This document shows, in pieces, positions 8,524 through 32,000 of a stretch of 32,000 bases of DNA. A program made the translations under genes and the position numbers. The stretch is from assembly GCF_000196355.1 (NCBI RefSeq), contig NC_007614.1, positions 270,001-302,000 of the forward strand, given 5' to 3'. Within the stretch, counting starts at the first letter, position 1. Each line of letters opens with the position of its first letter. The notes under the pieces were generated by a model. That model saw only the letters and a program-made list of their open reading frames with translations, was not told where the DNA came from and searched no databases. The DNA is from Nitrosospira multiformis ATCC 25196 (GTDB taxonomy: Bacteria; Pseudomonadota; Gammaproteobacteria; Burkholderiales; Nitrosomonadaceae).

Positions 8524-8541
8524 TTTTTTTTTGGAGCAGGG

Positions 8542-9675: not shown

Positions 9676-10787
9676 AAAAAATTTATCTTGTTGCCGGAGC
9701 TCGTCCCAATTTCATGAAAATTGCGCCGGTCGTGCGCGCTTTGCAGACTCGCAAGTGTCTGGAATTTAAGATTATTCATACTGGCCAGCATTACGACAGG
9801 GAGATGAATGACGTTTTCTTTGAAGAACTCGGCATCCCCCAGCCGGATGTTTTCATGGCTGCGGGTGGCGGAACTCATGCGCAACAGACCGCAAGGATCA
9901 TGATGGCATTCGAAGAGTTTTGTGAGGCTGATCCCCCGGATGCTGTGCTGGTGGTAGGGGATGTGAACTCGACACTGGCCTGTTCCATTGTAGCCAAAAA
10001 GTTGCATATACCCGTGGCTCACGTGGAGGCAGGTTTAAGGAGCGGCGATATCACGATGCCGGAGGAAGTCAACCGTATCGTTACCGATAGCATTTCCGAC
10101 TGGTTTTTCGTGACTGAGCCCAGTGGAATAGATCATTTGAAGCGGGAAGGAAAGCCGGATTCCGCCATTCATTACGTTGGCCACGTGATGATCGATAATT
10201 TACTGTACCAGCTCGAAAAGCTGGAGGACCATGATATTTCAAGTCTTGAAACAAGCCCCTTCAAGGCGAAGCTTGCGATCAACGGAAGTCGTTATGGAGT
10301 CGTGACTCTCCACCGGCCGAGCAATGTGGATAACGTCGAGATGATAACCCGGCTGTGTGGTGCGCTGCGGGAGATTGCCGTGGAATTGCCCCTGATTTTT
10401 CCGGTTCATCCCCGGACGCGGGGGAATCTGGAAAAGTTTGGCATTGAGCTGGGGCCGAACATCACGCTGCTGGGACCGCAGGCATACATGCCTTTTCTTA
10501 ATTTATGGAAAGACGCCGCCGTGGTGCTGACCGACAGTGGAGGATTACAGGAAGAAACCACTGCTCTCGGGGTGCCTTGCGTTACTCTTCGCGATAATAC
10601 CGAACGTCCCATCACTGTGGAAGAGGGGTCCAACGTTTTGGCTGGTACCGATCCGGTCCGCATCATTGGCGAAGTACGAAAGATATTGCATGGAGAAGGC
10701 AAGCGCAGCCAACGGCCCCATCTATGGGATGGAAAAGCGGCTGAACGGATAGTGGATGTGCTGGTGAGGGAAGTAAGTCAGGCGTAA
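9672..10787 (+). CDS. wecB: UDP-N-acetylglucosamine 2-epimerase (non-hydrolysing)
   Basis: GARPNFMKIAPV, HTGQHYD, VVGDVNSTLA, HVEAGLRS and TDSGGLQEET are hallmark WecB/MnaA motifs. The ATG overlaps the upstream stop (ATGA). Confidence 0.9.
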   Translation: MKKIYLVAGARPNFMKIAPVVRALQTRKCLEFKIIHTGQHYDREMNDVFFEELGIPQPDVFMAAGGGTHAQQTARIMMAFEEFCEADPPDAVLVVGDVNSTLACSIVAKKLHIPVAHVEAGLRSGDITMPEEVNRIVTDSISDWFFVTEPSGIDHLKREGKPDSAIHYVGHVMIDNLLYQLEKLEDHDISSLETSPFKAKLAINGSRYGVVTLHRPSNVDNVEMITRLCGALREIAVELPLIFPVHPRTRGNLEKFGIELGPNITLLGPQAYMPFLNLWKDAAVVLTDSGGLQEETTALGVPCVTLRDNTERPITVEEGSNVLAGTDPVRIIGEVRKILHGEGKRSQRPHLWDGKAAERIVDVLVREVSQA

Positions 10788-11090
10788 ACACCACGCTGTG
10801 GCTCAGCACGGCTAATAACGGTTACTGGCGGTGTCATCAGCCCAGAGTAAATCTGGAGGAACGTTCGCGATAAGATGTGGCAATTGATCTCTTCCTTTGA
10901 TTGTTTCGAATGGAATTGCTTGAGACGTGGGGTATCGTATCCCTCAAGTATTATTGAAAGGAATCGAGAGAGGAAGAAATCGCGGAAAAGCTGATGACGA
11001 TAAATCGTTTATGCTCTCTCGTCGATGCGTGATTATTGCGAAGGCGCCGAGCCATTATAATTTCTCTTTTTGAAATGAAGCAGGACACTT

Positions 11091-12152
11091 ATGATCCTTG
11101 TTACCGGCGGCGCAGGCTATATAGGTTCCCACACCTGCCTGGAATTACTGAACGCAGGTCTTGATGTCACTGTATTCGACAATTTTTGTAATAGCCATCC
11201 TGAAGCATTAAGACGGGTTGAGCGCATCACCGGAAAGAAGCTGCGCGTTGTGCAAGGCGACTGCCGTGACCGCTCCTCCGTGACCAAAGCCCTCCATGAG
11301 AGTCAGGCGACCGCGGTTATCCACTTCGCCGGTCTTAAAGCGGTGGGAGAGTCGGTGAAGCAGCCCCTGGCTTACTACGATAATAATGTTGTTGGTACGC
11401 TCCGCTTGCTGGAGGCGATGAATGAGTGTGGAGTGAAAACTCTGGTATTCAGTTCCTCTGCTACTGTTTACGGTGAGCCAAGGCGGCTACCGTTAACCGA
11501 AGATCATCCCCTCTCTGCCACGAATCCCTACGGACGGAGCAAACTGATGATCGAAGAAATTCTGCGCGATGTATATCGCAGTGATTCTTCCTGGCGCTGC
11601 GCCATCCTCAGGTATTTCAATCCTGTTGGAGCACATCCCAGCGGTCTGATCGGTGAAGATCCCAGAGGAACTCCTGATAATCTCATGCCCTTTGTGGCCC
11701 AGGTTGCCATTGGCCGTCGGGAGTATCTGAACGTGTGGGGCAATGACTATCCGACGCCGGATGGAACGGGCGTACGCGATTACATTCATGTCGTGGACTT
11801 GGCGTTAGGTCATCTCAAAGCCCTCGAAGCTCTGGAGAATCCGGAAGTGCGCAATGCAGAGGCCGTTGACAGGCAAGGAGGATGCCTGACGGTAAACCTC
11901 GGGACCGGGACGGGCTATAGTGTGCTGGAAATGATAAGGGCTTTTGAAAAGGCGAGTGGGCAAAAGGTATCATACAGAATTGCTTCCCGCCGCCCGGGGG
12001 ATATTGCCTCATGCTATGCTGAGCCCGGACTCGCATCCGATCTCCTCGGCTGGCGGGCAAAGCGAGGGCTGGAAGAAATGTGCGTTGACACCTGGCACTG
12101 GCAGAACCAGAATCCCGAGGGATATGGAAGCGAGAGTTCACATTTGGACTAG
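11091..12152 (+). CDS. galE: UDP-glucose 4-epimerase
   Basis: [31 protein letters not shown] (YxxxK) and LRYFNPVGAH are typical of GalE. Confidence 0.9.
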   Translation: MILVTGGAGYIGSHTCLELLNAGLDVTVFDNFCNSHPEALRRVERITGKKLRVVQGDCRDRSSVTKALHESQATAVIHFAGLKAVGESVKQPLAYYDNNVVGTLRLLEAMNECGVKTLVFSSSATVYGEPRRLPLTEDHPLSATNPYGRSKLMIEEILRDVYRSDSSWRCAILRYFNPVGAHPSGLIGEDPRGTPDNLMPFVAQVAIGRREYLNVWGNDYPTPDGTGVRDYIHVVDLALGHLKALEALENPEVRNAEAVDRQGGCLTVNLGTGTGYSVLEMIRAFEKASGQKVSYRIASRRPGDIASCYAEPGLASDLLGWRAKRGLEEMCVDTWHWQNQNPEGYGSESSHLD

Positions 12153-12253
12153 AGTGAGTGGGTTCTGATTTCTTTGTCGCTATCACCGCTTTCCTGCCAG
12201 GGTTCCCGGTAAATCCGCTCGAGTAGCAACGATTCGTTCTTCGTAAAAACTTT

Positions 12254-13699
12254 ATGCAATCATTGGTTCCCATTGTCCTCTCCGGCGGGTCCGGAACCCG
12301 CCTGTGGCCTCTTTCACGCCAGAAATATCCGAAACAGCTCCTGTCTTTTATCGGTGAAGACTCGCTGTTGCAAGCAACCCTCCGCCGCATGGAAGGACTC
12401 ACCGATGTCGAGCTTGGAGCGCCTCTCGTCATTTGCAACGAGGAGTACCGCTTTGTCATCGCCGAGCAACTGCGGCTCATGGGAACAAAAGGGAATATTC
12501 TGCTCGAACCAGTGGGACGTAATACTGCCCCCGCACTTACACTGGCTGCACTTGCGGCAATGCGGGATGGAGGCGATCCGGTTCTGCTGGTGATGCCGGC
12601 AGATCATGTGATCGTTGATGTGCCCTGTTTTCAAATGGCCATTCGCGCAGGTATGGGGCTGGCGGCGGGGGGTGCAGTGGTAACATTTGGAATCACGCCG
12701 GATTCGCCGGAAACAGGCTATGGCTATATTGAAGCCGGTGAGGCATTGGGAAAGGGTGGAGCAAGCCGGATAGCGCGCTTTGTTGAAAAACCCGATCGTG
12801 CCACCGCACAAACATATCTCGAGACTGGCTCCTATTTCTGGAACAGCGGCCTATTCATGATGACGGCTTCGGTATGGCTTGCTGTCATAGACGCCTGTCG
12901 TCCCGATATTTCAACCGCTTGTCGTGCAGCCTGGGAGAAGGGGGTGGTCGATGGCGATTTTTTACGTGTCAACAAGGAAGAGTTTCTGCGTTGTCCGAGC
13001 GATTCGATTGATTATGCCGTAATGGAGCGCCTCGCCCACGATGACTCTTTGCCGGCCGGCGTATTCATTCCGCTCTCCGCGGGATGGTCCGATGTGGGGT
13101 CCTGGGACTCCTTATGGCAGGTTCTGCCCAAGGATCATCAAGGCAACGTGTCTCAAGGCGATGTGCTGTTGAATGATTGCCGCAACGTATTGGCCTTGTC
13201 GGAGCATCGGCTCGTGGCCTGCGTGGGGATCGAAGACATGGTGGTGATTGAAACCCCAGATGCCATCCTCGTGGCTCACATGAACAAAACCCAGCATGTA
13301 AAGAAAATCGTGGACGACCTCAAACGCAAAGGCCGGCCGGAGAGCGAACTGCACCGAAAGGTATTCCGTCCCTGGGGGTGGTATGACGGAGTCGATTCGG
13401 GTGAGCGTTTCCAGGTAAAGCGGATCGTTGTCAAGCCAGGCGCTTCGTTGTCGCTTCAGATGCACCATCATCGTGCCGAGCATTGGATCGTCGTACATGG
13501 AACTGCACAGGTAACGCGTGGCGATACGACTTATCTTGTGTCGGAAAATGAATCTACTTTCATACCATTGGGCACGCGGCATCGTTTGCAGAATCCTGGT
13601 TGCGTTCCATTGGAGATGATAGAGGTTCAGTCGGGTTCATATTTGGGAGAAGACGACATCGTGCGATTCGAGGATGTTTACGGAAGAAAGGAAAGCTGA
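12254..13699 (+). CDS. manC: Bifunctional mannose-1-phosphate guanylyltransferase / mannose-6-phosphate isomerase (type II PMI-GMP)
   Basis: N-terminal IVLSGGSGTRLWPLSR and FWNSGLFM. C-terminal cupin HRAEHWIVVHGTA...NESTFIPLGTRHRLQNPG. A length of 481 aa is typical of CpsB/ManC/XanB. Confidence 0.9.
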   Translation: MQSLVPIVLSGGSGTRLWPLSRQKYPKQLLSFIGEDSLLQATLRRMEGLTDVELGAPLVICNEEYRFVIAEQLRLMGTKGNILLEPVGRNTAPALTLAALAAMRDGGDPVLLVMPADHVIVDVPCFQMAIRAGMGLAAGGAVVTFGITPDSPETGYGYIEAGEALGKGGASRIARFVEKPDRATAQTYLETGSYFWNSGLFMMTASVWLAVIDACRPDISTACRAAWEKGVVDGDFLRVNKEEFLRCPSDSIDYAVMERLAHDDSLPAGVFIPLSAGWSDVGSWDSLWQVLPKDHQGNVSQGDVLLNDCRNVLALSEHRLVACVGIEDMVVIETPDAILVAHMNKTQHVKKIVDDLKRKGRPESELHRKVFRPWGWYDGVDSGERFQVKRIVVKPGASLSLQMHHHRAEHWIVVHGTAQVTRGDTTYLVSENESTFIPLGTRHRLQNPGCVPLEMIEVQSGSYLGEDDIVRFEDVYGRKES

Positions 13700-13911
13700 A
13701 GGCTCGATCAATTTTCCTAGCTAGTCCTATCGGTCTATTGATCATTTTTCCATGGAGTGTAATCTTCCATTATCGAGGCCCGCGAATTTCTTTCGCACCT
13801 CGGTACAATAGGTATCACCAACAAAAAAATTGTCAACCACTCTTCCATATATGAAGAGTTATGCAGGACCGGTTGGCTACTTCCATGTACATGACGATTA
13901 GGAGGTATAAG

Positions 13912-14481
13912 ATGACTAAATTTCCAGTGAAACACGCTATTGCAGTTGCGGTTCTCGCGGGGGCGAGTATGGGTGCCCAAGCGGATACGATGACGGATCT
14001 CGGCACGCTATCCACGTCTACTCCCACGACTTTCTCGGGGATCGTAGGGCCCACTCATGCGGGTTTTAGCGATATCTTCACGTTTACACCGCAGGAGCCC
14101 AATTTTGGTGCTGGAGCAACGGTAGTAAACCTTCCGCTCAGCTTTGGCGGATTTAGCTTTGATACAGCCCTTGCCACCATGTCGCTTGTTTCAGCGGGCG
14201 CCGATGGGATAGCTGGTAATAGCGACGATAGCGTTCTACAGTCCGTTGTGCTTCCCTCACCCGGCAACAGTCAAGATAGCCTGACCCTGCATTGGGACAC
14301 TCCCATGTCAGGTTTGCACTATCTTAATATTACCGGTGTGGCAGTTGGCAGCGAGGGTGGTATATATAGTGGCGCAATTGCTGCAGCGATACCTGAACCC
14401 GAAACATATGCGATGCTTCTGGCTGGTTTGGGGCTCATGGGCGCCGTCGTTCGTCGCCGGGGAATGCGCAAAACTTCATAA
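13912..14481 (+). CDS. FxDxF-family PEP-CTERM protein
   Basis: GGAGG Shine-Dalgarno 6 nt before ATG 13912; the ORF-track start at 13861 adds an unlikely leader. Signal peptide MTKFPVKHAIAVAVLAGASMGAQA. FSDIF motif. C-terminus IPEPETYAMLLAGLGLMGAVVRRRGMRK. Confidence 0.8.
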   Translation: MTKFPVKHAIAVAVLAGASMGAQADTMTDLGTLSTSTPTTFSGIVGPTHAGFSDIFTFTPQEPNFGAGATVVNLPLSFGGFSFDTALATMSLVSAGADGIAGNSDDSVLQSVVLPSPGNSQDSLTLHWDTPMSGLHYLNITGVAVGSEGGIYSGAIAAAIPEPETYAMLLAGLGLMGAVVRRRGMRKTS

Positions 14482-16145: not shown

Positions 16146-17207
16146 ATGATTCTGGTAACAGGAGGCGCCGGATTTATCGGGGCAAATTTCGTATTGGATT
16201 GGTTGGAGCGATCTGACGAGGCGATCATCAACCTCGATGTGCTCACCTATGCTGGCAACCTGGAGAACCTGAAAACGCTGGAGGGTGACAAGCGGCATGT
16301 TTTTGTACAAGGCGATATTGGTAATTCCGACCTCCTGATTCATCTGCTAAAGGACTATCGGCCGCGGGCCATCCTTAATTTTGCCGCGGAGAGTCATGTC
16401 GATCGTTCCATACATGGTCCGGAGGACTTCATACAGACCAACATCGTGGGTACCTTCCGTCTTCTGGAAGCATCTCGCGATTACTGGAGCAGATTGAAGG
16501 AAAATGAAAAACAGCAGTTTCGTTTTCTGCACGTCTCAACCGATGAGGTTTATGGCTCGCTGGCAAAAGACGAAATGCCTTTTACCGAGACCCATCGTTA
16601 CGAACCCAACAGCCCTTACTCGGCAAGCAAGGCAGCAAGCGATCATTTGGTGCGCGCCTATCACCACACCTACGGGTTGCCTGTTCTCACCACAAACTGC
16701 TCCAACAATTACGGGCCATATCAATTTCCCGAAAAGCTCATCCCGCTTATGATCGTCAATGCACTGGCGGGAAAGTCATTGCCGGTCTACGGCGATGGCC
16801 AGCAAATCCGTGACTGGCTCTACGTAAAAGATCATTGCAGCGCCATTCGCCGTGTGCTGGAGGATGGCATTCCGGGACAGATTTATAATATCGGCGGCTG
16901 GAATGAAAAACCCAACATCGAAATTGTGGAAACAATCTGTAGCCTGCTCGACACGTTCCGTCCCCGGGAGGGCCACTCCTATCGCAATCTGATTAAATAT
17001 GTGGCGGATCGTCCAGGCCATGACCGGCGCTATGCGATCGATGCGAGCAAAATCGAGCGTGAGCTGGGTTGGAGACCTGCTGAAACTTTTGAAACGGGAA
17101 TCAGCAAAACCGTGCAATGGTATCTCGACAACGCGGCTTGGGTCACCCATGTTCAATCCGGCGCTTACCGGCACTGGGTGGAGAAGAACTACAAAGAGCG
17201 CGCTTGA
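16146..17207 (+). CDS. rfbB: dTDP-glucose 4,6-dehydratase
   Basis: [23 protein letters not shown] and [21 protein letters not shown] Shine-Dalgarno upstream. First gene of an rfbBDAC block. Confidence 0.93.
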
Positions 17208-18109
17208 TGAAAATTCTGCTGTTCGGAAAAGACGGCCAGGTTGGGTGGGAACTGCAGCGCAGCCTTGCCCCCCTGGGGGAGATAGTGGCTCTGGATTTTG
17301 GCAGCCAGGAATACTGCGGTGACTTTACGCGCTGCGATGGAATCGCGGATACCGTTCGGACAGTTGTGCCGGACGTGATCGTGAATGCCGCCGCCTATAC
17401 AGCGGTGGACAAGGCTGAAAGCGAGCCGGAGCGTGTCCGTATCATCAACGCCCTCGCTCCCGCTATACTCGCCCGCGAGGCCGGCAAGCTGGGTGCCTGG
17501 CTGGTACATTATTCCACCGATTATGTATTTGACGGGGGTGGAAGCGCGCCTCGGGTAGAAACCGACCCCCCCGCCCCTTTAAATATGTACGGCATAACCA
17601 AGCTGGAAGGCGAGCAAGCGATTCTGACCGCGGATTGCAATCATCTCATCTTTCGCACGAGTTGGGTTTTTGCAGCGCGTGGCAGTAATTTCGCAAAAAC
17701 CATGCTGCGCCTGGCGCAGCAACGCGATAGTCTCAATGTTATCGATGACCAGGTCGGTGCTCCTACCGGCGCGGAGCTTCTAGCCGACATCACTGCTCAC
17801 GTCATACGGATAAGCAGGCAGCGCCAGAATATCTCGGGGCTTTATCATCTGGCTGCCGCGGGTGAAACATCGTGGTACGGGTATGCGAATTTTGTATTGA
17901 ACTTTGCGCGGCAGAGGGGAGTCAAGCTCACGGCCGCGCCGGAAAATGTTTTCCCGATAGCAAGCAACGAATTTCCATCCGCCGCCCGGCGGCCAAAAAA
18001 CTCGCGCCTCGATACCGCAAAACTGCAAAGCACATTCGATTTAAGCTTGCCGTCATGGGAGACAGGGGTTGCGCGCATGCTCACCGAAATTCTCGAGAAA
18101 CCACTATGA
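17207..18109 (+). CDS. rfbD: dTDP-4-dehydrorhamnose reductase
   Basis: The ATG at 17207 overlaps the rfbB TGA by 1 nt; the ORF-track start at 17117 lies inside rfb[27 protein letters not shown] and STDYVFDG are typical of RmlD. Confidence 0.9.
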
Positions 18110-18993
18110 TTCAGCGTAAAGGCATCATTCTTGCCGGCGGCTCCGGCACACGGCTCTATCCGGTGACAAAAGCAGTCTCCAAACAACTGCTGCCTATTTA
18201 CGACAAGCCCATGATCTACTATCCGCTCAGCACATTGATGCTCGCGGGTATTCGCGACATTCTCATTATTTCCACTCCCCAGGATACCTCGCGTTTCGAG
18301 CAGCTTCTGGGCGATGGGGGCGGTTGGGGCTTGAATCTGCAATATGCGGTGCAAAACAGTCCGGATGGGCTCGCTCATGCTTTTATCATTGGCAGGGATT
18401 TCATTGGAAGGGATTCAAGCGCGCTTGTGTTGGGTGATAACATTTTCTATGGTCACGATCTGCATCTGCAATTACAGCGTGCCATGGAAAGACAGGAAGG
18501 CGCGACGGTCTTTGCCTATCATGTCCAGGATCCGCAGCGCTACGGAGTCGTCGCCTTTGATGCAAATCACCGCGTTTCTTCGCTGGAAGAAAAACCCGCC
18601 CAACCCAAAAGCAACTATGCGGTGACCGGCCTGTATTTCTACGATAATCAGGTAGTGGATATTGCCAGTGACCTCAAGCCTTCCGCACGCGGCGAGCTGG
18701 AAATCACCGATGTCAATCGCACTTATCTCAAACACAATCAACTCAATGTGGAAATCATGGGGCGCGGCTATGCCTGGCTGGATACCGGCACGCACGAAAG
18801 CCTGATAGAAGCGAGCAACTTCATTGAAACCATTGAGCATCGTCAGGGGCTCAAAGTGGCCTGTCCGGAAGAGATCGCCTTTCGCCAGGGTTTCATCAGT
18901 AGTGAGCAACTTGAGAAGCTCGCGCAACCTCTGGCCAAGAATGGTTACGGCCAATACTTGAAACGCTTGCTAGAGGAACAGGTGGTTACATGA
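18106..18993 (+). CDS. rfbA: Glucose-1-phosphate thymidylyltransferase
   Basis: The ATG at 18106 forms an ATGA overlap with the rfbD stop. [24 protein letters not shown] and [12 protein letters not shown] are typical of RmlA. Confidence 0.93.
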
Positions 18994-19541
18994 AGGTTAT
19001 CGCCACCTCTATCCCGGAGGTCATGATAATCGAGCCTAAAGTATTCGGAGATAGTCGCGGATTTTTCTTCGAAAGCTTCAATCAGGAAAATTTCCGGCAG
19101 GCGACCGGACTTGACGTGCGGTTTGTACAGGATAATCATAGCCGCTCTGTCAAGGGTGTACTGCGTGGCCTGCACTATCAGGTTCGTCGGCCGCAGGGAA
19201 AGCTGGTACGTGTCGTGCGGGGAGCAGTATTCGACGTAGCAGTGGATATTCGCAGATCATCCCCTACTTTTGGCCATTGGGTCGGGGTCGAATTGACTGA
19301 AGACAATTACCGCCAGTTGTGGTTGCCGCCCGGATTCGCGCATGGATTCTATGTCCTCAGTGACATTGCAGATTTCTTATATAAAACCACCGAGTACTAT
19401 TTTTCTGATTTTGATCGCAGTATTCTGTGGAACGACCCGGGAATTGCCATCGGATGGCCCATCGAGGCAGGTGTAAGCCCTGTCGTTTCCAGCAAAGATG
19501 AAAAGGCGGCGAGACTGGTTCATGCCGAGGTGTTCGAATGA
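18990..19541 (+). CDS. rfbC: dTDP-4-dehydrorhamnose 3,5-epimerase
   Basis: ATGA overlap with rfb[19 protein letters not shown] and [12 protein letters not shown] are typical of RmlC. Confidence 0.93.
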
Positions 19542-23648: not shown

Positions 23649-24263
23649 CTATTCATCCCATTTTCCCGCTTGTTTCAATTGATTCTTCAAGCCCGGTAAC
23701 GGAAATCCGAGTTCATACGCTTTCTTCGCATATGTTTTCGCCTGCTCGTAATTTTTCTGTTTCAAGTAGAGCAGGCCAAGATTGTAATTGATAGTAGGAT
23801 TTTCCGGTTCAAGGTCAATGGCTATTCCCAGTTCCTCAGTCGCCTTGTCAGTTTGTCCAGCTTTCAGCAGATAATCGCCGTATACCATTCTTACTACCGC
23901 ATCGTTTGGTTTGAATCGAATGGCGCGATCAAAAAAACATCCAACGGAATATTTTGCGCCAGCTGGTTTTAGAGTCTTGTCTCTCAATGAGAGCTTACTG
24001 AATGCGGCGAGAGCGCGATGATGGTTGGGGAACAACATAAGGGTATAACTTAAGTCCCCTCCGAGAGTTCCGGTATTTCCATGGCGCAAGCTTTCTATGT
24101 TTGAAGTAAAGTGATGTTGCTCAACAGTTCCCAAGAGTTGCTTATCCCCGCCTATATAGTCATGGACATTTATCAATTCTCCACAATAGGCAGAAGAGGT
24201 TGCATGAAGATCTGGCGCGATCAATGAAATAACCAATATCGCAATTCCGGGTATGACTTTCAT
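23649..24263 (-). CDS. Exported small TPR-repeat protein
   Basis: AAGGA Shine-Dalgarno before the second ATG (24263). Signal peptide MKVIPGIAILVISLIAPDLHA. C-terminal TPR-like repeats (YGDYLLKAGQTDKATEELGIAIDLEPENPTINYNLGLLYLKQKNYEQAKTYAKKAYELG). Confidence 0.7.
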   Translation of the reverse strand: MKVIPGIAILVISLIAPDLHATSSAYCGELINVHDYIGGDKQLLGTVEQHHFTSNIESLRHGNTGTLGGDLSYTLMLFPNHHRALAAFSKLSLRDKTLKPAGAKYSVGCFFDRAIRFKPNDAVVRMVYGDYLLKAGQTDKATEELGIAIDLEPENPTINYNLGLLYLKQKNYEQAKTYAKKAYELGFPLPGLKNQLKQAGKWDE

Positions 24264-24504
24264 TAGCGTTCCTTGCAATCAAGCTTACCTTGCTCTGTCG
24301 ACTCTCTACCTCTGTCCAGCCTGTCTTGAGGGAAGGGAGATTCCCTTAATCCCCGGTTCGATTCGAACTTGAGGCCTCTTAAAACGATTTTAAATATTCT
24401 CGAGATAGAAGGAAGTGGTTGTCAAGTTCAACCAAGACACGAGGATTTTTTGAAAGTGGTTTTCTCCGAAATCGGTTGGCCGAAATGCCAATTCAAAGCG
24501 GTTT

Positions 24505-25383
24505 TTACCAGGAGTAAAGCCATTCTTTTGTCCAGCGCGCGATCTGATCGCGCCACTCCCGCCGGGAAAAGGTATGGTTGGCTTCTGGCAGGCTGAAGCG
24601 CGAAAAGTGTGGAGAAGCCAGCAGTTTTTTCCATTTTTGTGAACCTTTGACCAGCTCGGAAAACTCCTGAGCAGTCAGGTCATTGCCGCAGAGTATCAGG
24701 AGCACTCTTCCCTGGAAACGCTCAAGCCCTTGAAACATCCGTTCCGGCAAGGGAGCCGCTTCGCAACCGCTTTTGCAGTTATTCTTTGCAGCGGGAGGTG
24801 CAATTTCCCCTCTTTCGGCTACGACTGTACCAATAGTGCCGAAAAGTGATCTTGCAGACGCGGCATAGTTGAAATTTCCGCTCCATATTTTGCCCCAGAG
24901 TTCACGATCAAAAATGCGCGAAATGTAATAGTGCTTCAAATACGCTCTGGCAGAGCCTTCCTCCGTTCTTACCCATGGATTCAGCAGGACCAGTCCGGTC
25001 ACGCGCGGGTCCTGATAAGCATAAAACAATGCAGCCGATGCTGCATCGCATAGTCCCAGAATAACCAGTTCGTTCAGGGAAGGGATTTCTGCGAAGAGAC
25101 GATCTATTCCAGAGCGGACATCATCTTTCACGTTTTCAAAAGTCCTCGCGTCTCCCTCACTATCACCCATGCCGCGGAAATCAAAACGGAAGACCGGTAT
25201 GCCATTCGCCGCCAAGTGGCGGGCAAGGAGGGTAAACTGGCGATGGCTTCCTGCGCGATATTGAGGTCCTCCAACGAGAATAAGAATACCCCTTGAAGCA
25301 GCCTGTTCAGGCAAGGTTAAAATACCGTAAAGGCAATCGCTCCCACAGCAAAAAACGATGGGACGCTCCTCATAATTCATCAT
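24505..25383 (-). CDS. Alpha/beta hydrolase, exosortase A system-associated 'hydrolase 1' family
   Basis: The start MMNYEERPIVF at 25383 forms an ATGA overlap with the upstream stop; the ORF-track start at 25509 lies inside the upstream gene. Alpha/beta-fold landmarks: ILILVGGPQYRAGSHR, FRFDFRGMGDSEG, the elbow VILGLCDAASAAL, then LCGNDLT and EANHTF. The family call is from my memory of TIGR03100. Confidence 0.8.
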   Translation of the reverse strand: MMNYEERPIVFCCGSDCLYGILTLPEQAASRGILILVGGPQYRAGSHRQFTLLARHLAANGIPVFRFDFRGMGDSEGDARTFENVKDDVRSGIDRLFAEIPSLNELVILGLCDAASAALFYAYQDPRVTGLVLLNPWVRTEEGSARAYLKHYYISRIFDRELWGKIWSGNFNYAASARSLFGTIGTVVAERGEIAPPAAKNNCKSGCEAAPLPERMFQGLERFQGRVLLILCGNDLTAQEFSELVKGSQKWKKLLASPHFSRFSLPEANHTFSRREWRDQIARWTKEWLYSW

Positions 25384-26231
25384 GCGGCCAGTGCAAAAAC
25401 GCTCGTCGTTGCCGATATCAGTTCGGCACATTCCGAGATTTCCTGGGTCGCCCAGAACGGCTGGCACGGTATGAGATGGACGTGGAGGTCGACACCCTTC
25501 TGCTTCCACTTCTCGGTTATCTTTGCCCCGGCAGAAGTCATGGAACGCCCCGGCTCAGGGATGATCTCGAACCAGTGGACGGCGCTTTTTCCAACGGCCA
25601 ATTCAGCCGCCTTCAAGCCATCGATTGCATTTGCGAGTCCGGGTGCAAGCTCGTATCCCGCTATTTCCAGTGTTTCACCCTCTTCCATTTGCTTGCGCAA
25701 CATAGCCGTTCCTGTCGATTTTTCCTCGGAGACGGTGGAGAATAGTTCACCTGCCATTCGCAATCGCAAGAACTGACTCAGGAAGGTTTCTCCGCTGATA
25801 ACGGGTTGCCATAAAATGATGCGGTCAACGGCATTTGCTGCATCTTGTGCGAAGTCCAGGGCCAGCAGCGCGCCCAGGCGTAATCCCCACAAACTTACCG
25901 GAACGGCAAGGCGGCTCTCAAGCCAGAGTCGGGCGCGGGCCAGATCCTGCTTCCAGATGTCCCACCGGGCATCGCGAAACTCGCCACTGCTATCGCCACA
26001 CCCAAAAAGATCCATTTGCAGCACTCCCCATCCAATCGCGGCGAAAGCTCTTGCCTGGACCGCGGCCATCCGCCGCGCTTTGTTCATTTCGTCGCCGAAG
26101 GGGTGTACATACAGAATGGTCCCCTGGCATTTCCTGCCTGGATGCGGCTGATGAAAAAGGCAGAAACGCTGTCCCAACTCGGTTTGCAAAAAGAAAGGCT
26201 CTGCATGAATCGAGCCGGGATCCATTTTCAT
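25380..26231 (-). CDS. Alpha/beta hydrolase-fold protein, exosortase A system-associated 'hydrolase 2' family
   Basis: ILYVHPFGDEMN, LQMDLFGCGDSSG and the elbow VSLWGLRLGALLAL. Sits between the ACP gene and hydrolase 1 and is coupled to both by ATGA overlaps. The family call is from my memory of TIGR03101. Confidence 0.75.
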   Translation of the reverse strand: MKMDPGSIHAEPFFLQTELGQRFCLFHQPHPGRKCQGTILYVHPFGDEMNKARRMAAVQARAFAAIGWGVLQMDLFGCGDSSGEFRDARWDIWKQDLARARLWLESRLAVPVSLWGLRLGALLALDFAQDAANAVDRIILWQPVISGETFLSQFLRLRMAGELFSTVSEEKSTGTAMLRKQMEEGETLEIAGYELAPGLANAIDGLKAAELAVGKSAVHWFEIIPEPGRSMTSAGAKITEKWKQKGVDLHVHLIPCQPFWATQEISECAELISATTSVFALAA

Positions 26232-26479
26232 TCCGCCAGCTTCTGCTCGACGAATTGGGTCAGGCTGCCGACAGTTTCGAAAGTTTTTGCACTGATCTCA
26301 TCATCGTCAACCGTGATGTCGAAGTGGTCCTCGAGAGCGGTGATTACATTGACGACAGCCATTGAATCCAGTTCGGGAATGGCCCCAAGCAAGGGGGAAT
26401 CCGCATTGAGCGAATTTCTTCTTTCCCCGAGGCTCAATACGTCAGATAGGATGTTTCTCACTTCTTCAATATGCTGCAT
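26228..26479 (-). CDS. Acyl carrier protein (phosphopantetheine-binding)
   Basis: 83 aa and acidic. The phosphopantetheine attachment motif PELDSMAVVNVITALE sits at the expected helix-2 position. GCGGAG Shine-Dalgarno upstream. ATGA overlap with hydrolase 2. Confidence 0.85.
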   Translation of the reverse strand: MQHIEEVRNILSDVLSLGERRNSLNADSPLLGAIPELDSMAVVNVITALEDHFDITVDDDEISAKTFETVGSLTQFVEQKLAE

Positions 26480-26882
26480 ATTTACTCCGCGCTGTTTATT
26501 TTTGAGGAGACGTCATTGCTGCAATCCCTGAGTATCAAGATGAAGTTTTCAAAATGAACCGGAGGTGCGAAGGCAAATGAAAATAGGATAAGGGCTGCGA
26601 GACGGCGCACTTCATCTTTCCGAAGATGACAACCCGCGGTGGTAGTGCAAGCGTTTATAAAGCGCTGCTCCTTCAGCATAGGCTGGCTGGACAGCGATAC
26701 AAATTCCCTTCCTGTCACTGTTTTTGCTGCTTCCGCCGGTAATTTTGCCGTCCTGGATAAAAATCCGCTAATGGTACTACAAGTCGCGGGACGTTACTTC
26801 CCGAAGGTAAAAATCACTTTACTTTTCAATGGATTTTCTTGTAACCTTCGAACGTCTTGTCTTTTATCAGGGAAACAATAAC

Positions 26883-28358
26883 ATGAAAAAACTGAAGGAA
26901 TTCAGGAAGCTGAAGTCGGGGGAGGATTCAGCGGGCTCGAGCAATGTTCGCCCGGCTGGTCCGATTCTTCCTGTTTTATTCGTCGCCGCTTCTTTCCCGG
27001 TTTGTATGGGACAAGTAAACGCCGAAACCTCGTTCGAACGGTTATCGTCCTTGCTGGCAGGAACGCCGCAAGGCGGGTGGGTCAAGGCGAGCACCAACTT
27101 ATTTTCCGATGCATGGGCAACGGGAGCAGATGCAGCTCCTGGCCCGACGAGCGCGGTTGTTCGTGCATGGAGTTCATTTGCCTGGGATTCCGCTCGCGGA
27201 GATCTGCTGTTATGGGGCGGCGGCCACGGGAATTACGTGGGCAACGAAATGTATGTGTGGGACGGCGCTACGGGGAGTTGGGGCCGAGGTTCCTTAGCCA
27301 GCAGAATAGATTCGAAGGGTTTTATTGTCGACAATGCTGCGCCTCAATCCGCCCATACCTATGACAATAATGTCTATCTTCCGGCAAATGATATGTTCCT
27401 TACATTCGGGGGGGCTGCAGCGCCAGGCGGCGGCGCGTTCCTCCAAACGGATGGAACTAATGTGAGCGTGGCGGGACCTTTTATGTGGGATCCAAGAAAG
27501 GCTGATCCGAACAAGGTGGGGGGTACTACCGGCTCGGGCTGGAATACGACCCATATAGCGCAAGGGGGCAATATGTGGCTCGACCGACACGTATCGACGG
27601 CGACCCATATTGACGGTACAACGGCTTATCGCATGGAAAACGGTAAAGACGTCGTTTATGTCACAGCGGATATGGCAGCCTCGGGTTTTCCTTCGCTTTA
27701 CCGCTATACGGCGGGGGACGTGAGGAGTGGCGGCCAGGATACCTGGGAAAGAGTTGGCCGCTCATGGAACACGGTGGGGTACCAGGGCGCTGGAACAATT
27801 GATACAGACCACAATCTCTACATCCGAACCGCCAGCCCGCGGCCCAGCTATGCGTCCGATCTGACAATATGGGATCTGGACAATGCCAATCCCGATCACA
27901 ACTGGGATATCGGAATAAACCTGGTAAAGGCGGATGGCAGCGACTTTGTGATGACGCCGTATTTCGGTATCGATTATGATTCTGCCAACAACTCGATCGT
28001 GCTTTGGGATGGCCGCGACGGCGGAGGAACAGTCTGGTCAGCCAATGTCCTTACAGATGCCGATGGCAACATTGGTTCCCATACTACCTGGGTGGTTCAT
28101 GAGATAGAAAGCGCTACCGGGGATCATCCTCTCGGCAATCATGAGACGGGAGTTCTTGGCAAATGGAAATATGATCCCACGCTTGGGGCATTCATAGCGC
28201 TCGATGAGGCCGCAAAAACGGCCGATGGCAAGTGGGATGCCGCTGTGTGGTTATACAAACCGGTTGCGGGGCCCGTTCCTGAACCTCAGGCATACGCACT
28301 CTTACTTGCAGGACTCGGACTTATTGGGTGGGCTGTCCGTGGTCGGCGCGCAGGTTGA
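26883..28358 (+). CDS. PEP-CTERM protein with a Kelch/galactose-oxidase-like beta-propeller domain
   Basis: ATG 26883 with an AGGGAAA Shine-Dalgarno. Signal peptide ...PILPVLFVAASFPVCMGQVNA. Kelch-like blades (DLLLWGGGHGNYVGNEMYVWDGATGSW; NSIVLWDGRDGGGTVWS). C-terminus VPEPQAYALLLAGLGLIGWAVRGRRAG. Confidence 0.8.
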   Translation: MKKLKEFRKLKSGEDSAGSSNVRPAGPILPVLFVAASFPVCMGQVNAETSFERLSSLLAGTPQGGWVKASTNLFSDAWATGADAAPGPTSAVVRAWSSFAWDSARGDLLLWGGGHGNYVGNEMYVWDGATGSWGRGSLASRIDSKGFIVDNAAPQSAHTYDNNVYLPANDMFLTFGGAAAPGGGAFLQTDGTNVSVAGPFMWDPRKADPNKVGGTTGSGWNTTHIAQGGNMWLDRHVSTATHIDGTTAYRMENGKDVVYVTADMAASGFPSLYRYTAGDVRSGGQDTWERVGRSWNTVGYQGAGTIDTDHNLYIRTASPRPSYASDLTIWDLDNANPDHNWDIGINLVKADGSDFVMTPYFGIDYDSANNSIVLWDGRDGGGTVWSANVLTDADGNIGSHTTWVVHEIESATGDHPLGNHETGVLGKWKYDPTLGAFIALDEAAKTADGKWDAAVWLYKPVAGPVPEPQAYALLLAGLGLIGWAVRGRRAG

Positions 28359-28650
28359 CTGCTGGCATGGCGACAAACAACTACGGATAACGAGTTTTCT
28401 CTCCGCACCAGGAACCGCAGTATTTCGAATTCTGGATCCTTCCCCAACTATTCATGGATCATAGGGAAAGAGCATTGGATGGAGCGCTCGCGCCAGCAGT
28501 TCCTGGAAATGATGCCCGTCTTTCATGGGCGACTTCGAGGATTAAAGGGCATGCCATTTTCACTTATCCAGGGAAGAGCAGGAAGCCGGGAAGGCTTACT
28601 GGCAGGGATACTAATAATTAACTGATCTTCGGGCGTTAGCCCCCGAAACG

Positions 28651-28711
28651 AACGAAGGCATTCCCCGGTTATTGCGCGCCCGGGGAACTCCGGCCCAGGA
28701 ACTTCGTTTTT
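28651..28711 (+). terminator. Nested GC-rich stem-loop followed by a T5 run (terminator-like or structured RNA element)
   Basis: An outer stem AACGAAG (28651-57) / CTTCGTT (28702-08) encloses TTCCCCGG (28661-68) / CCGGGGAA (28680-87), followed by TTTTT ending at 28711. A further hairpin TTCGGG/CCCGAA sits at 28628-28647. Confidence 0.3.
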
Positions 28712-28880
28712 ACTGATTGCCTATGGATGATTGTGGATGATCCGCGTTGATAGCACTTGCAATGGAGTTTCCCACACAATCCTGAGAACCTTCAACCAGC
28801 CAAAGCCTCATAACTCCCCGCCCTTTTTGCACCAGAACCGCCCACCCAGTTAAGGAATTGTCTCTTTCCGTGGATACTCT

Positions 28881-30002
28881 ATGGCAACTTTAAAAGTTGT
28901 AGTGATTTTGCCGACCTACAACGAGCGGGATAACATTGGCATCATGATTGATGCGCTAGAGGTTCAGGCTCGGGAGTTTCTTCATGATATGCACCTCCTT
29001 GTGGTGGATGACGATTCGCCCGACGGCACGGCGGAAGTGGTTCGGGCCAAGCAGACGGTATATCCGAATGTGCATTTGCTGAGGGGAAAGAAGGCAGGGT
29101 TGGGCGCCGCCTATATCCGCGGTATGATTCATGCCATGGATGAGCTTCATGCCGATGTCGTATTCGAGATGGATGCTGATTTTTCGCATAAACCCGAAGA
29201 TGTACCTCGGCTTATGGCGGCACTCGATGGAGGCGCGGATTTTGTGATTGGCAGCCGTTATGTGAAGGGCGGCTCCATTCCCCAGGAATGGGGGTTTCTA
29301 CGCCGCATGAATTCCCTGGGCGGTAATATCGTTGCACGCTACGTTGCCGGAATGTACAGAATTCGAGACTGCACAGCCGGTTTCAGGGCGATCAAAACGA
29401 ATCTCCTCAGAAAAATCATTTTTGATGATCTTCGTGTTCAGGGATACGCTTTCCAGGTTGCACTGCTGCACAAGGCCGTATCTCTCGGTGCAGTCATAAA
29501 AGAAGTTCCCGTCGACTTCGTAGATCGTGCCAAGGGTGAGTCGAAGCTCGGAATTTCCGACATCATCGAGTTTATCCTGAACGCCTGGTGGATACGTCTC
29601 CACAGCTCAAAGACTTTTATCAAGTTCGCCATAGTAGGACTGTCCGGCGTTATTGTGAATCTTGGCGTGTTTACACTGCTTCTCCAGGCAAATGTAAATA
29701 AATATCTCGCTTCTCCTATCTCAATCGAAATATCGATTATCACGAACTTTCTGTTGAATAACTACTGGACCTTTCGCTGGCGCACGTCTCAAGATCACAT
29801 CCGTGTCAAGGGTCTGAAGTTCAACATGGTTTCTCTCGTATCTCTGGGGGTGAGTTATTCCACTTTTGTAGTGCTATCCGTTCTGTTTCCTGATGTCTCT
29901 CCGGAGATTCACCAGCTTGTCGGTATTGCACCCGCCATGTTCATAAATTACTTTCTGAATTCTTATTGGACGTTCAAAAATACTCCTGCACCCAAGGATT
30001 GA
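28881..30002 (+). CDS. Polyprenol-phosphate mannosyl/glycosyltransferase (Dpm1/Ppm1-type GT2) fused to a C-terminal GtrA-like membrane domain
   Basis: VVILPTYNERDNI, VVDDDSPDGT, EMDADFSHKPED, GSRYVKGG and DCTAGFR are typical of the DPM1/Ppm1 family. The C-terminal ~130 aa has four hydrophobic helices with NNYWTFR and NSYWTFK (GtrA family). Confidence 0.85.
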   Translation: MATLKVVVILPTYNERDNIGIMIDALEVQAREFLHDMHLLVVDDDSPDGTAEVVRAKQTVYPNVHLLRGKKAGLGAAYIRGMIHAMDELHADVVFEMDADFSHKPEDVPRLMAALDGGADFVIGSRYVKGGSIPQEWGFLRRMNSLGGNIVARYVAGMYRIRDCTAGFRAIKTNLLRKIIFDDLRVQGYAFQVALLHKAVSLGAVIKEVPVDFVDRAKGESKLGISDIIEFILNAWWIRLHSSKTFIKFAIVGLSGVIVNLGVFTLLLQANVNKYLASPISIEISIITNFLLNNYWTFRWRTSQDHIRVKGLKFNMVSLVSLGVSYSTFVVLSVLFPDVSPEIHQLVGIAPAMFINYFLNSYWTFKNTPAPKD

Positions 30003-30167
30003 GTAAACAGGAAGGGGTACCATTTCACCGCCGCTTGCAATTGTTTTCGGCTCTTTACTCAGGAGGACGTCATTAAGCTGAACGCAACCCGACCGGCTTT
30101 GCACCGATTTGTCGACATATCGGGTTTATCCTGGTTAAAAGTAGGCTAATTATCTGAATCTCCCGTT

Positions 30168-31526
30168 TTGAACACACTTCCAGATCCAGAAAGTAACATT
30201 GAGGGCATCCATCGCTTTCGACGCCGCCACAGAATTGCCGCTCCCTTGTTTCAGCTCCTCGATTCGCATGTTTTCCTGCCGGCGTGTTTCATACTTTTCG
30301 TGGCATTGCGCGTAGCCCTGATTTTCTTTGTGCCCGTTGAGATGACTTCCGATGCAAGCTGGTACTTCAACAGAGCGGTTGGCATAGCGAGCGGCGGCGG
30401 CTATTCGGAAGCGGGGTATCCGACAGCCTATTGGCCGGTTGGCTATCCCGGCTTTCTTGGTATCCTTTTCTATCTTTTCGGTCGGGATCAATTGGTAGGG
30501 CAGATAGCTAATTTGGTTATGGCAGCCCTCAGTTTTTTTCTGCAACTGGAGCTGACACGAAGAATTTTCCGGAGCGAAGCCGCTGCCCGCTTGGGCGTCC
30601 TCCTGCTTACCCTATATCCGAATCATGTAGCTTATACGTCTTTTATCTTAACCGAGGTTTACTTTACCTTTTTACTGCTTCTTGGCGTATACCTCTACAT
30701 CACAAGGAGCCGATGGTTATGGATATGGGTTTGCGGCATTGTCTTCGGGCTGGCCGCGCTGACCAAACCGCAAGCAGTGTTCTTGCCTGGTCTGCTGGTG
30801 CTTTTTCACGTATTCAGCGCCGAGAGAAAGGATAGGCTGAGGCAGCACCTCATCAAGGGATTTGCAATCTATCTTGCTATGGCTATGGTGCTGGTCCCCT
30901 GGGCGGTGCGGAACACGATGATTTTCGGGGAGCTCGTCCTGATTTCCACTAACGGAGGGGCAACGCTCCTGACCGGAAATCATCCCACAGCCAGCGGAGG
31001 CTATGAGGAAAACGATCCGCTGGTGGCCCAGCGCAATTTCTCGGTTCAGGATCAGGTGGAATCTGACCGGCGCGCAAAGAAGCTGGCAACCGATTGGATA
31101 AGGGAAAACCCCGTGCGGTTTGTAGAGCTTATCCCTCTGAAGATATGGCATCTGTGGTCCAGAAATGGCGAAGCGGAGTGGGCCTATCAGGCGGGGTACC
31201 GGTACTATGAGCAGTATAGCGGCGCGTTCCGAACCATGAGGTGGATAAATCAGATCTTTTATGCTCTGCTGCTTGTGGGCTCGTTCGCGGCAGCTTTCCT
31301 GTTGATAAGGCATCCCGATAAAGTCGCTTGGCCGTGGGTGCTCGTGGGATACTGCCTGATGATTTACCTGACCTTGATATCGGTGGTCTTTTCCGGGCAA
31401 CCCAGGTTTCATTTTCCGGCCATGCCATGGGCCATCATGTATGCAGCGTGGGCAGCCGTGATGATCACGGTGAATCAGACCCGGGAACGGTATGACGCCT
31501 ACGTCTCCAGAACATCGGATTTCTAG
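30168..31526 (+). CDS. GT-C fold membrane glycosyltransferase (GT39 / ArnT / PMT_2-like)
   Basis: At least 9 predicted hydrophobic helices. The first periplasmic loop SDASWYFNRA carries the acidic motif typical of PMT/ArnT-type enzymes. YPTAYWPVGYPGFLG is also present. Start uncertain: TTG 30168 or TTG 30246, neither with a good Shine-Dalgarno; ATG 30342 would delete TM1. Confidence 0.8.
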   Translation: MNTLPDPESNIEGIHRFRRRHRIAAPLFQLLDSHVFLPACFILFVALRVALIFFVPVEMTSDASWYFNRAVGIASGGGYSEAGYPTAYWPVGYPGFLGILFYLFGRDQLVGQIANLVMAALSFFLQLELTRRIFRSEAAARLGVLLLTLYPNHVAYTSFILTEVYFTFLLLLGVYLYITRSRWLWIWVCGIVFGLAALTKPQAVFLPGLLVLFHVFSAERKDRLRQHLIKGFAIYLAMAMVLVPWAVRNTMIFGELVLISTNGGATLLTGNHPTASGGYEENDPLVAQRNFSVQDQVESDRRAKKLATDWIRENPVRFVELIPLKIWHLWSRNGEAEWAYQAGYRYYEQYSGAFRTMRWINQIFYALLLVGSFAAAFLLIRHPDKVAWPWVLVGYCLMIYLTLISVVFSGQPRFHFPAMPWAIMYAAWAAVMITVNQTRERYDAYVSRTSDF

Positions 31527-31732
31527 AGCTGCAACCGTTTCCAGACGAACAGGCACGTGCTTGACGGATGCGCTCCGTCCGGTAAAGAGGCGGATAATTC
31601 CGATCTTTCCAGGTCTTCCCATTGCAATACGTCTTCACCTGGAAAAGTAAATTAAATCATCTCCACTTGAAGCTGTAATTAAGTAGAATTTGACCCGGGG
31701 CACCAGAAGATGAAGGAATCGGATCTGATCAT

Positions 31733-32000
31733 ATGCCATTGGAAATCAGCATTGTCTCCACCATGTACCGGTCGCGGCCGTTTCTTGACCGGTTCCTTGC
31801 CGAATCCCTGCAAGCCTTGTCTGCGATCAAGTGTGACCATTTTGAGATATTGCTCGTCAATGATGGCTCGCCGGATGAGTCCCTGGCTTACGCGCTCGAA
31901 CGCCGGAGAGACATCCCGCAACTCGTGGTGGTTGATCTTGCGCGGAACTTTGGGCATCACGCTGCTATACAGGCTGGATTACGGCATGCACGGGGAAATC
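31733..32000 (+). CDS. Glycosyltransferase family 2 (polyprenyl-phosphate sugar synthase-like), 3' end outside the window
   Basis: Absent from the ORF track because no stop codon is reached. My own translation from ATG 31733 is MPLEISIVSTMYRSRPFLDRFLAESLQALSAIKCDHFEILLVNDGSPDESLAYALERRRDIPQLVVVDLARNFGHHAAIQAGLRHARGN. It contains the classic GT2 motifs (IVSTMYRS, NDGSPD, RNFGHH). Confidence 0.75.
   Translation, partial: MPLEISIVSTMYRSRPFLDRFLAESLQALSAIKCDHFEILLVNDGSPDESLAYALERRRDIPQLVVVDLARNFGHHAAIQAGLRHARGN

Follow-up and report, generated by a model that had tools for sequence, protein, structure and literature searches.

A conserved synthase and GT-C transferase pair in an exosortase-A polysaccharide locus of Nitrosospira multiformis belongs to a known type of periplasmic glycosylation system

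Three-component glycosylation systems such as GtrA/GtrB/Gtr(type), CsbB/GtcA/YfhO, GacI/GacL and the pentofuranose system of Citrobacter youngae (PMC11127046, PMC8035078) combine a polyprenyl-phosphate sugar synthase of glycosyltransferase family 2 (GT2), a small GtrA- or ArnE/F-type membrane element and a GT-C glycosyltransferase within a surface-polysaccharide locus, and add a single sugar outside of the cytoplasm. A locus of this kind is described here for Nitrosospira multiformis ATCC 25196, from which a stretch of 32,000 nucleotides (contig NC_007614.1, positions 270,001 to 302,000; hereafter the window) was analyzed. In this window a DPMS-type polyprenyl-phosphate hexose synthase (28881..30002, plus strand) is followed by a GT-C glycosyltransferase (30168..31526, plus strand) and by the beginning of a second GT2 gene. 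The system belongs to the well-known three-component type of periplasmic glycosylation and lies beside a swappable amino-sugar module. All four genes that a first-pass annotation of the DNA had listed from position 26883 onward were recovered when all open reading frames (ORFs) were checked, and the logic it had proposed, a synthase, a GtrA-like element and a GT-C transferase acting together, is borne out by homology and fold. Features of Gtr-type systems found here comprise the GT2 synthase, a GtrA-type component, a GT-C with an invariant aspartate (D62) and a pairing that is conserved across taxa. Judged from these sequences, it is very probable that the cell synthesizes a lipid-phosphate monosaccharide in the cytoplasm and flips it, and that the GT-C uses it for a transfer in the periplasm; also here the addition of a single sugar outside of the cytoplasm is predicted. 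Unlike in the described systems, synthase and GtrA-like element form a single fused protein, and the host locus is an exosortase-A (XrtA) exopolysaccharide (EPS) locus instead of an O-antigen or teichoic-acid locus.

The fusion itself has a well-described precedent in the type-III DPMS of Pyrococcus furiosus (PfDPMS; PDB 5mlz; PMC5526996, PMC12992685), which likewise consists of a GT2 domain with a DAD motif and a four-helix GtrA-like domain. The product of 28881-30002 is collinear with PfDPMS from end to end (E 2.5e-52), shares the DAD motif (DxD), and matches the Pfam families Glycos_transf_2 (aa 8-179) and GtrA_DPMS_TM (PF04138; aa 248-365, 95 bits). As the alignment covers the full length of both proteins, the "Ppm1-GtrA fusion" of the first-pass annotation does exist, yet it is the standard DPMS architecture and not a new combination. 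Matches to ArnC were obtained at E 1e-12 to 1e-13, and all matches to NCBIfam equivalogs (AglJ, ArnC, PpgS and others) stayed far under their cut-offs. The polar pocket of PfDPMS holds flipped dolichyl-phosphate mannose, and a possible flipping of the product by the enzyme itself has been suggested (PMC12992685). In the alignment the pocket residues Asn248 and Arg341 correspond to Asn260 and Asn356 of the window's synthase, so that Asn is found at both pocket positions, whereas the gating residue Phe338 corresponds to Met353. The membrane domain predicted for the window's synthase may therefore be considered as a candidate for flipping the product as well. As the strict motif definition of type-III DPMS retrieves archaeal members only (PMC12992685), the protein is called DPMS-type here and not type III. 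Furthermore, as it is a bacterial protein, its lipid is, unlike that of PfDPMS, presumably undecaprenyl phosphate. A possible supplier of the sugar donor is encoded in the window by manC (GDP-mannose pyrophosphorylase/phosphomannose isomerase; 12254..13699, plus strand; TIGR01479, 678 bits), which would make GDP-mannose a plausible donor.

The second component, the product of 30168-31526, had been read as a PMT/ArnT-like GT-C transferase, and this assignment is supported by Pfam matches to PMT_2 (43.5 bits) and PMT (PF02366; 32.1 bits, cut-off 22.7) as well as by its predicted fold. An AlphaFold2 model (pLDDT 84.7) retrieved exclusively GT-C transferases at Foldseek ranks 1-30 and 32, among them ArnT, AglB/STT3, Pmt, Emb, ALG9, PimE and AftB. 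The top global match was ArnT (5f15; E 2.9e-5, TM-score 0.39), and the tightest local fits were those to Pmt1-Pmt2 and Pmt4 (root-mean-square deviation 4.3-5.5 Å over 262-276 columns). The residues S61, D62 and W65 of the first periplasmic loop do not vary among 16 homologues. The first-pass annotation had considered a clustering with ArnT as a possible outcome; no ArnT model was found among the NCBIfam matches at E ≤ 0.01, and PDB sequence searches, run both with the GT-C sequence alone and with a profile of 16 family sequences, yielded no true match. By these sequence comparisons the product is not an ArnT orthologue. A Pfam scan did also not reveal any C-terminal PMT_4TMC domain. The protein belongs to a large GT-C subfamily, with 2,542 cluster representatives at E ≤ 1e-30 and, under a relaxed threshold of E ≤ 1e-10, 20,741. 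According to the PDB sequence searches this subfamily has no characterised or solved member, which is a further difference to the three-component systems introduced above. A 301-aa ORF (30717-31622) on the antisense strand of the GT-C gene probably does not represent a real gene.

When one genome per species was scanned, 404 relatives of the GT-C were recovered, and 80 of their loci (labelled with L and a number) were compared including 10-kb flanks by tblastn, clustering and family scans, with a crude ORF picker that missed some small or overlapping genes. A DPMS-type gene is located directly before the GT-C gene in nine of eleven Nitrosospira-type loci; the exceptions are L009, which has no DPMS gene, and L008, which is cut by a contig end. 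The same pair is found in Zoogloea, with a synthase that is 70% identical, and in the Burkholderiaceae locus L090, where the start and stop codons of the two genes overlap. The conserved functional unit is thus formed by 28881-30002 and 30168-31526. That the adjacency is meaningless, with the DPMS-type enzyme feeding enzymes encoded elsewhere and the GT-C using another donor, could be argued from the intergenic gaps of 165 bp (synthase to GT-C) and 206 bp (GT-C to second GT2), from upstream regions that are not conserved, and from Novosphingobium relatives of the GT-C without any GT2 neighbour. However, this is very unlikely, as in Nitrosospira, Zoogloea and Burkholderiaceae the GT-C gene comes directly after the DPMS-type gene, with overlapping codons in L090, and as the GT-Cs of the betaproteobacterial loci examined usually adjoin some GT2. 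In six loci GtrB-type GT2 neighbours are moreover accompanied by a GtrA-like ORF (L026, L067 and L083) or an ArnE/F-like ORF (L022, L028 and L033). With such small ORFs beside a GtrB-type GT2, the three-component pattern recurs across the family.

The window as a whole represents one long surface-polysaccharide region, in which the pair is flanked by exosortase-A markers, hydr1 and hydr2 upstream and stp3 (TIGR04063) downstream. The upstream markers belong to an exosortase-A accessory operon (23649..26479, minus strand; NCBIfam and Pfam PP-binding matches), consisting of an acyl carrier protein (ACP; 26228-26479, PP-binding), hydr2_PEP (25380-26231; TIGR03101, 324 bits, cut-off 203), hydr1_PEP (24505-25509; TIGR03100, 338 bits, cut-off 168) and a TPR protein (23649-24278), all on the minus strand. 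The accessory operon that had been reported at a distance of 2.4 kb is therefore real. Read mechanically from the GTG at 25509, the hydr1 ORF shares 130 nt with hydr2; database calls are shorter (292-308 aa). All ten Nitrosospira-type loci that include the upstream flank have the minus-strand genes for TPR, hydr1, hydr2 and ACP in this order ahead of the GT-C gene. In Sulfuricella (L023) stp1, XrtA (TIGR03109, 352 bits, cut-off 208), stp2, an amidotransferase (1112 bits, cut-off 817), an unannotated ORF, stp3, a GT2 and the GT-C follow each other on one strand, with Wzx and PEP_O_lig_1 (TIGR03097; 535 bits, cut-off 188) further downstream; the markers named here exceed their NCBIfam cut-offs. 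Beyond the Nitrosospira loci, XrtA markers within 10 kb of the GT-C gene were found in L020, L023, L026, L028 and L067. The previously proposed association with exosortases thus holds insofar as XrtA loci recur in Nitrosospira and in at least five further loci, yet such markers occur in only 13-15 of the 80 loci, all of them betaproteobacterial. No XrtA marker was detected within 10 kb in the loci from Zoogloea, Burkholderiaceae (L090), Novosphingobium, Acetobacteraceae and Chromatiaceae. In a neighbour-joining tree without support values the XrtA-linked GT-Cs fall into one half dominated by Betaproteobacteria, with unlinked members among them, and the other half contains the Zoogloea and Novosphingobium sequences.

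As the pair sits inside an XrtA polysaccharide locus, here as well as in the Sulfuricella operon, the EPS of this locus appears to be the likeliest acceptor. GT2 and GT-C pairs of Wzx/Wzy-type loci normally attach side-branch sugars. Considering the observed gene identities, folds and synteny, we assign a probability of about 0.5 to the reading that the pair decorates the EPS of the XrtA locus. On the cytoplasmic side of the membrane the DPMS-type enzyme would load undecaprenyl phosphate with a hexose taken from a nucleotide sugar, its GtrA-like four-helix domain would hold the lipid and might flip the product itself, and the GT-C would pass the single sugar on to the periplasmic acceptor, where it would become a side-branch sugar of the EPS added after export. 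Of the two substrates previously suggested for the machinery, PEP-CTERM cargo and EPS, the latter is thereby retained as the likeliest on grounds of its position in the XrtA locus, and linkage and sequence speak against the former. If EPS is indeed the acceptor, XrtA loci of nitrifiers and related Betaproteobacteria would possess a built-in decoration of their polysaccharide after its export.

Several observations weigh against a decoration of the EPS. The pairs of Zoogloea and Burkholderiaceae lie among the housekeeping genes uvrD, secDF, glnD and ligA, and their 10-kb flanks contain neither polysaccharide genes nor XrtA or PEP-CTERM genes. The XrtA gene itself is not located in the window. 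N. multiformis has been listed with 39 genes of the PEP-CTERM type and with Nmul_A0246 and Nmul_A2521 as its two EpsH genes (PMC1569441), and neither of the latter lies within the window. The two gaps given above and the non-conserved upstream region are compatible with more than one operon structure. Many Novosphingobium genomes carry GT-Cs of about 40% identity beside thrS without an adjacent GT2, which makes a conserved envelope acceptor unrelated to XrtA possible. Finally, the pairing with DprE2-like and GtrA genes in Chromatiaceae indicates that donor specificity varies within the GT-C family.

Some of the more distant loci are of interest by themselves. In the two Chromatiaceae loci (L025 and L029, 8736-11300) genes for a DprE2-like reductase and, as an ORF of its own, a GtrA-family protein lie ahead of a GT-C of 50% identity. 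This points to a polyprenyl-phospho-pentofuranose donor for this close relative and is reminiscent of the pentofuranose systems of PMC11127046. L045 and about 20 further Novosphingobium loci share a conserved arrangement (8100-14300) in which minus-strand genes for a luciferase-like monooxygenase, a TPR protein and an alpha/beta-hydrolase are succeeded by the GT-C gene, one small ORF, thrS and a gene resembling spermidine synthase. The TPR protein and the hydrolase were considered as a possible hydr1/hydr2/TPR set, but BLASTP returned generic superfamily matches only and the hydr2_PEP score was 35 bits with a cut-off of 203. In Azoarcus olearius (L091, 8001-10638) a DPMS-type orthologue, 70% identical to the window's synthase, overlaps the gene of a 515-aa membrane protein of the PMT family with the loop motif WVDEGFS. 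This partner was examined as a relative of the window's GT-C; hhalign found no relation, and it is a different PMT-family protein. The arrangement suggests that one conserved synthase serves different GT-C families across genera. In a metagenome-assembled genome (MAG) of the Nitrosomonadaceae (L012), the region with the GT-C gene (57% identity) is flanked by inverted copies of one pair of ORFs (231 and 288 aa; copies at 810-2567 and 11587-13344) and resembles a composite transposon.

The PEP-CTERM gene upstream of the pair (26883..28358, plus strand) had been annotated as encoding a Kelch-like beta-propeller, which agrees with the results of this analysis. Residues 482-507 match the Pfam PEP-CTERM family (PF07589; 31.7 bits, cut-off 20.7), and for an AlphaFold2 model with a pLDDT of 70 the top Foldseek matches in the PDB are Kelch propellers such as KLHDC10 and LZTR1 (target-normalised TM-score 0.66 for the latter). 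The mechanical ORF opens at 26829, but as homologues comprise 491-495 aa the start at 26883 is favored. The propeller family is well conserved, with members in Nitrosospira, Azonexus, Zoogloea and others. Its alignment exhibits many invariant polar residues, with the motifs GGGHxNYxGNE and APQSxHTYDNN, and besides Kelch domains the propeller also resembles those of GH93 enzymes and sialidases. No Pfam domain covers the propeller part of the protein, which may be an EPS-acting enzyme or a lectin and not a passive structural protein.

A tie between this gene and the transferases had likewise been proposed, and it did not hold. The propeller gene is present in L005, L007, L011 and L014 but missing from L006, L010, L016 and L027, all of which kept the pair, and its homologues in L085 and Zoogloea are remote from DPMS and GT-C genes. 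The propeller gene adjoins the glycosylation module without being a conserved constituent of it. This distribution bears on the idea that the pair O-glycosylates secreted periplasmic proteins and that PEP-CTERM cargo is modified before or during its processing by the exosortase. Glycosylation of PEP-CTERM proteins has been proposed repeatedly and is in the literature a hypothesis without an assigned enzyme or defined machinery (PMC12188702, PMC9850573). Protein O-glycosylation by a GtrB and a GT-C is established in streptococci (GtrB/PgtC2 and Pgf; PMC12041528), and there, as in the Ppm1/Pmt system of actinobacteria, a lipid-phosphate-hexose synthase is combined with a PMT-like GT-C. The window's GT-C exceeds the Pfam thresholds for PMT and PMT_2, its closest local structural fits are Pmt1-Pmt2 and Pmt4, and the pair occurs in XrtA loci of several lineages. 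In contrast to these protein glycosylation systems, the GT-C has no C-terminal PMT_4TMC domain, the host is Gram-negative, and the neighbouring protein does not offer a Ser/Thr-rich acceptor: Ser and Thr account for 14% of the propeller residues, with a maximum of 6 in any 20-residue stretch, and a search of the protein for a Ser/Thr-rich linker or region yielded none. Together with the four pair-bearing Nitrosospira loci lacking the propeller gene, the remote propeller homologues, and the pairs of Zoogloea and Burkholderiaceae that have no PEP-CTERM or XrtA gene nearby, this renders a glycosylation of cargo unlikely, and as acceptor the EPS is preferred over the neighbouring PEP-CTERM protein. 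In addition, the NCBIfam family TIGR03097 ([quoted passage not shown]) is already another candidate for such a role in these loci. It is quite unlikely, too, that the GT-C clade together with a DPMS-type synthase would be the PEP-CTERM O-glycosylation enzyme of exosortase-A bacteria, or would attach a sugar that their exosortase pathway requires for coupling cargo to EPS. If one of these did apply, it would explain why Nitrosospira, Sulfuricella and further Betaproteobacteria repeatedly recruited the pair to their XrtA loci, and would provide a concrete candidate for a modification that has been proposed since 2006 without an enzyme.

Downstream of the pair the window ends within the gene of a GtrB/ArnC-type polyprenyl-phosphate glycosyltransferase (31733..32000, plus strand; Pfam GT2). 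Its full sequence (316 aa) was taken from contig L002, which agrees with the final 601 bases of the window in every position and contains the complete gene at 3155-4105. The full-length protein matches the Synechocystis GtrB (5ekp) with E 6.6e-50 and ArnC with E 1e-31, in accordance with the earlier reading as a second GT2 with motifs of polyprenyl-phosphate-sugar synthases. It is the first gene of a cassette between GT-C and stp3 (L002 3155-11222) that continues the window past 32000. After the second GT2 follow genes for a methyltransferase, a glyoxalase-fold protein, an FkbH-domain protein (281 bits), an ACP, an N-acyltransferase of the NeuD/PglB/VioB type (197 bits), WbqC (258 bits), an ArnE/F-like membrane protein of 121 aa, a second methyltransferase and a WecE-type dTDP-4-amino-4,6-dideoxyhexose transaminase (623 bits, cut-off 375). 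The next gene, beyond the cassette, is a GT4, namely the PEP-CTERM/XrtA-system glycosyltransferase stp3 (662 bits, cut-off 442). Both the ArnC-like and the ArnE/F-like gene of the cassette score under the NCBIfam cut-offs.

The first-pass annotation had treated the three transferases as one set, and this part of it has to be given up. The cassette is missing from L006, L007, L014 and L027, in which stp3 is the next gene after that of the GT-C, and in L010 and L011 it closes with an own PMT_2 protein (562-586 aa) that is only distantly related to the window's GT-C. The second GT2 thus heads a separate, strain-variable lipid-linked-sugar system. In the window strain, which has no second GT-C, the distance between the transaminase gene and stp3 is just 130 bp, and the cassette may share the GT-C encoded at 30168. 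The tailoring genes of the cassette vary among some Nitrosospira, with ATP-grasp/HAD or hexapeptide transferases in their place. A betaproteobacterial MAG (L026, 7150-12419) encodes a GT-C of 45% identity and, downstream of it, a GtrB-type GT2 that is 84% identical to that of the window; this locus has its own GT2 and GtrA upstream. This arrangement suggests that the cassette is mobile between lineages and lands beside a resident GT-C. The combination of a fixed module with a swappable amino-sugar module would, if the EPS is the acceptor, be a likely source of strain-level surface diversity, which is of relevance for biofilm- and floc-forming bacteria.

Regarding its product, the cassette together with rmlA and rmlB would form a pathway to an N-acylated 4-amino-4,6-dideoxyhexose that follows an Arn-like logic. 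The genes rmlB-rmlD-rmlA-rmlC are located in the window (16146..19541, plus strand; NCBIfam equivalog matches), and RmlA and RmlB may provide dTDP-4-keto-6-deoxyglucose for the WecE-type transaminase, which would convert it to dTDP-4-amino-4,6-dideoxyhexose. FkbH, ACP, the VioB-type acyltransferase and WbqC would then tailor the amino sugar, the GtrB/ArnC-type enzyme would place it on undecaprenyl phosphate, and the ArnE/F-like protein would flip the resulting lipid. FkbH and ACP hint at an N-acyl group of an unusual kind, derived from glycerate. With the ArnC/ArnE-F/ArnT pathway for lipid A aminoarabinose the system has an ArnC-like GT2, an ArnE/F-like protein, a sugar aminotransferase and a terminal GT-C in common. 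It differs from this pathway in its aminotransferase, which is of the WecE type (623 bits) and acts on dTDP-4-keto-6-deoxyhexose, in an acylation of the FkbH/ACP/VioB type instead of a formylation, and in a GT-C that is not an ArnT orthologue. Furthermore, homologues of ArnA and ArnD are absent among the annotated genes of the window and its continuation.

These likenesses raise the question whether the module modifies lipopolysaccharide (LPS), be it lipid A, core or O-antigen, in the manner of ArnC/ArnT, of Francisella FlmF/FlmK or of Gtr-type systems. The adjacency to XrtA genes would then reflect a merged surface-polysaccharide superlocus. ArnT (5f15) as the top global Foldseek match of the GT-C fits with this idea, as do the ArnC-like, ArnE/F-like and ArnB-related (WecE-type) genes of the downstream cassette and the rml, tviB/tviC, wecB and galE genes of the window, which are typical of O-antigen loci. 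The lone pairs at betaproteobacterial housekeeping loci suggest a conserved envelope acceptor, too. On the other hand, the TM-score to ArnT is just 0.39, neither the NCBIfam search at E ≤ 0.01 nor the PDB search with the family profile retrieved ArnT, ArnA and ArnD are lacking as described, and the Sulfuricella pair is located inside of an XrtA operon. In addition, the GT-C family is abundant in Novosphingobium, a genus which contains glycosphingolipids in place of LPS. A modification of LPS is therefore plausible but less likely, and the EPS of the XrtA locus is kept as the preferred acceptor.

The PEP-CTERM gene and the pair are separated by a spacer of 522 bp (28359..28880), for which terminator-like hairpins had been reported. 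A compound hairpin followed by U5 can indeed be drawn at about 28628-28712 (-31.8 kcal/mol), but its energy is no better than that of shuffled sequence (z = -0.67) and a pattern scan of the spacer found no terminator on the plus strand; the terminator is a weak point of the first-pass annotation and was rejected. The spacer region is conserved in the closest strains only and not across Nitrosospira, and an Rfam scan of 26200-32000 gave no match.

Upstream of the PEP-CTERM gene the sequence TGTCAC-N5-TTGCT (26713-26728) deviates by one mismatch from the sigma-54 consensus, and this mismatch destroys the -24 GG. A near-palindrome, AGCGTTTATAAAGCGCT, is located about 55-70 nt further upstream, and the spacing of both elements is compatible with the PrsR/sigma-54 layout of Haft 2006. 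A sigma-54 consensus scan of the window did not yield more matches than expected by chance, and a search with the broad pattern GG-N10-GC was uninformative. A sigma-54/PrsR motif common to the PEP-CTERM and DPMS-type genes was also sought; the regions upstream of the DPMS-type genes could not be aligned across Nitrosospira.

The window is identical to contig FNVK01000010.1 (assembly GCA_900108135.1), and its closest named relatives are strains of N. multiformis. Besides the genes discussed so far, it contains a GT4, methyltransferases, wecB, galE, tviB/tviC and an FxDxF PEP-CTERM gene. At the left edge of the polysaccharide region a heparinase II/III-like ORF (71-1420; Hepar_II_III_C, 144 bits) was found, which might encode an EPS lyase.

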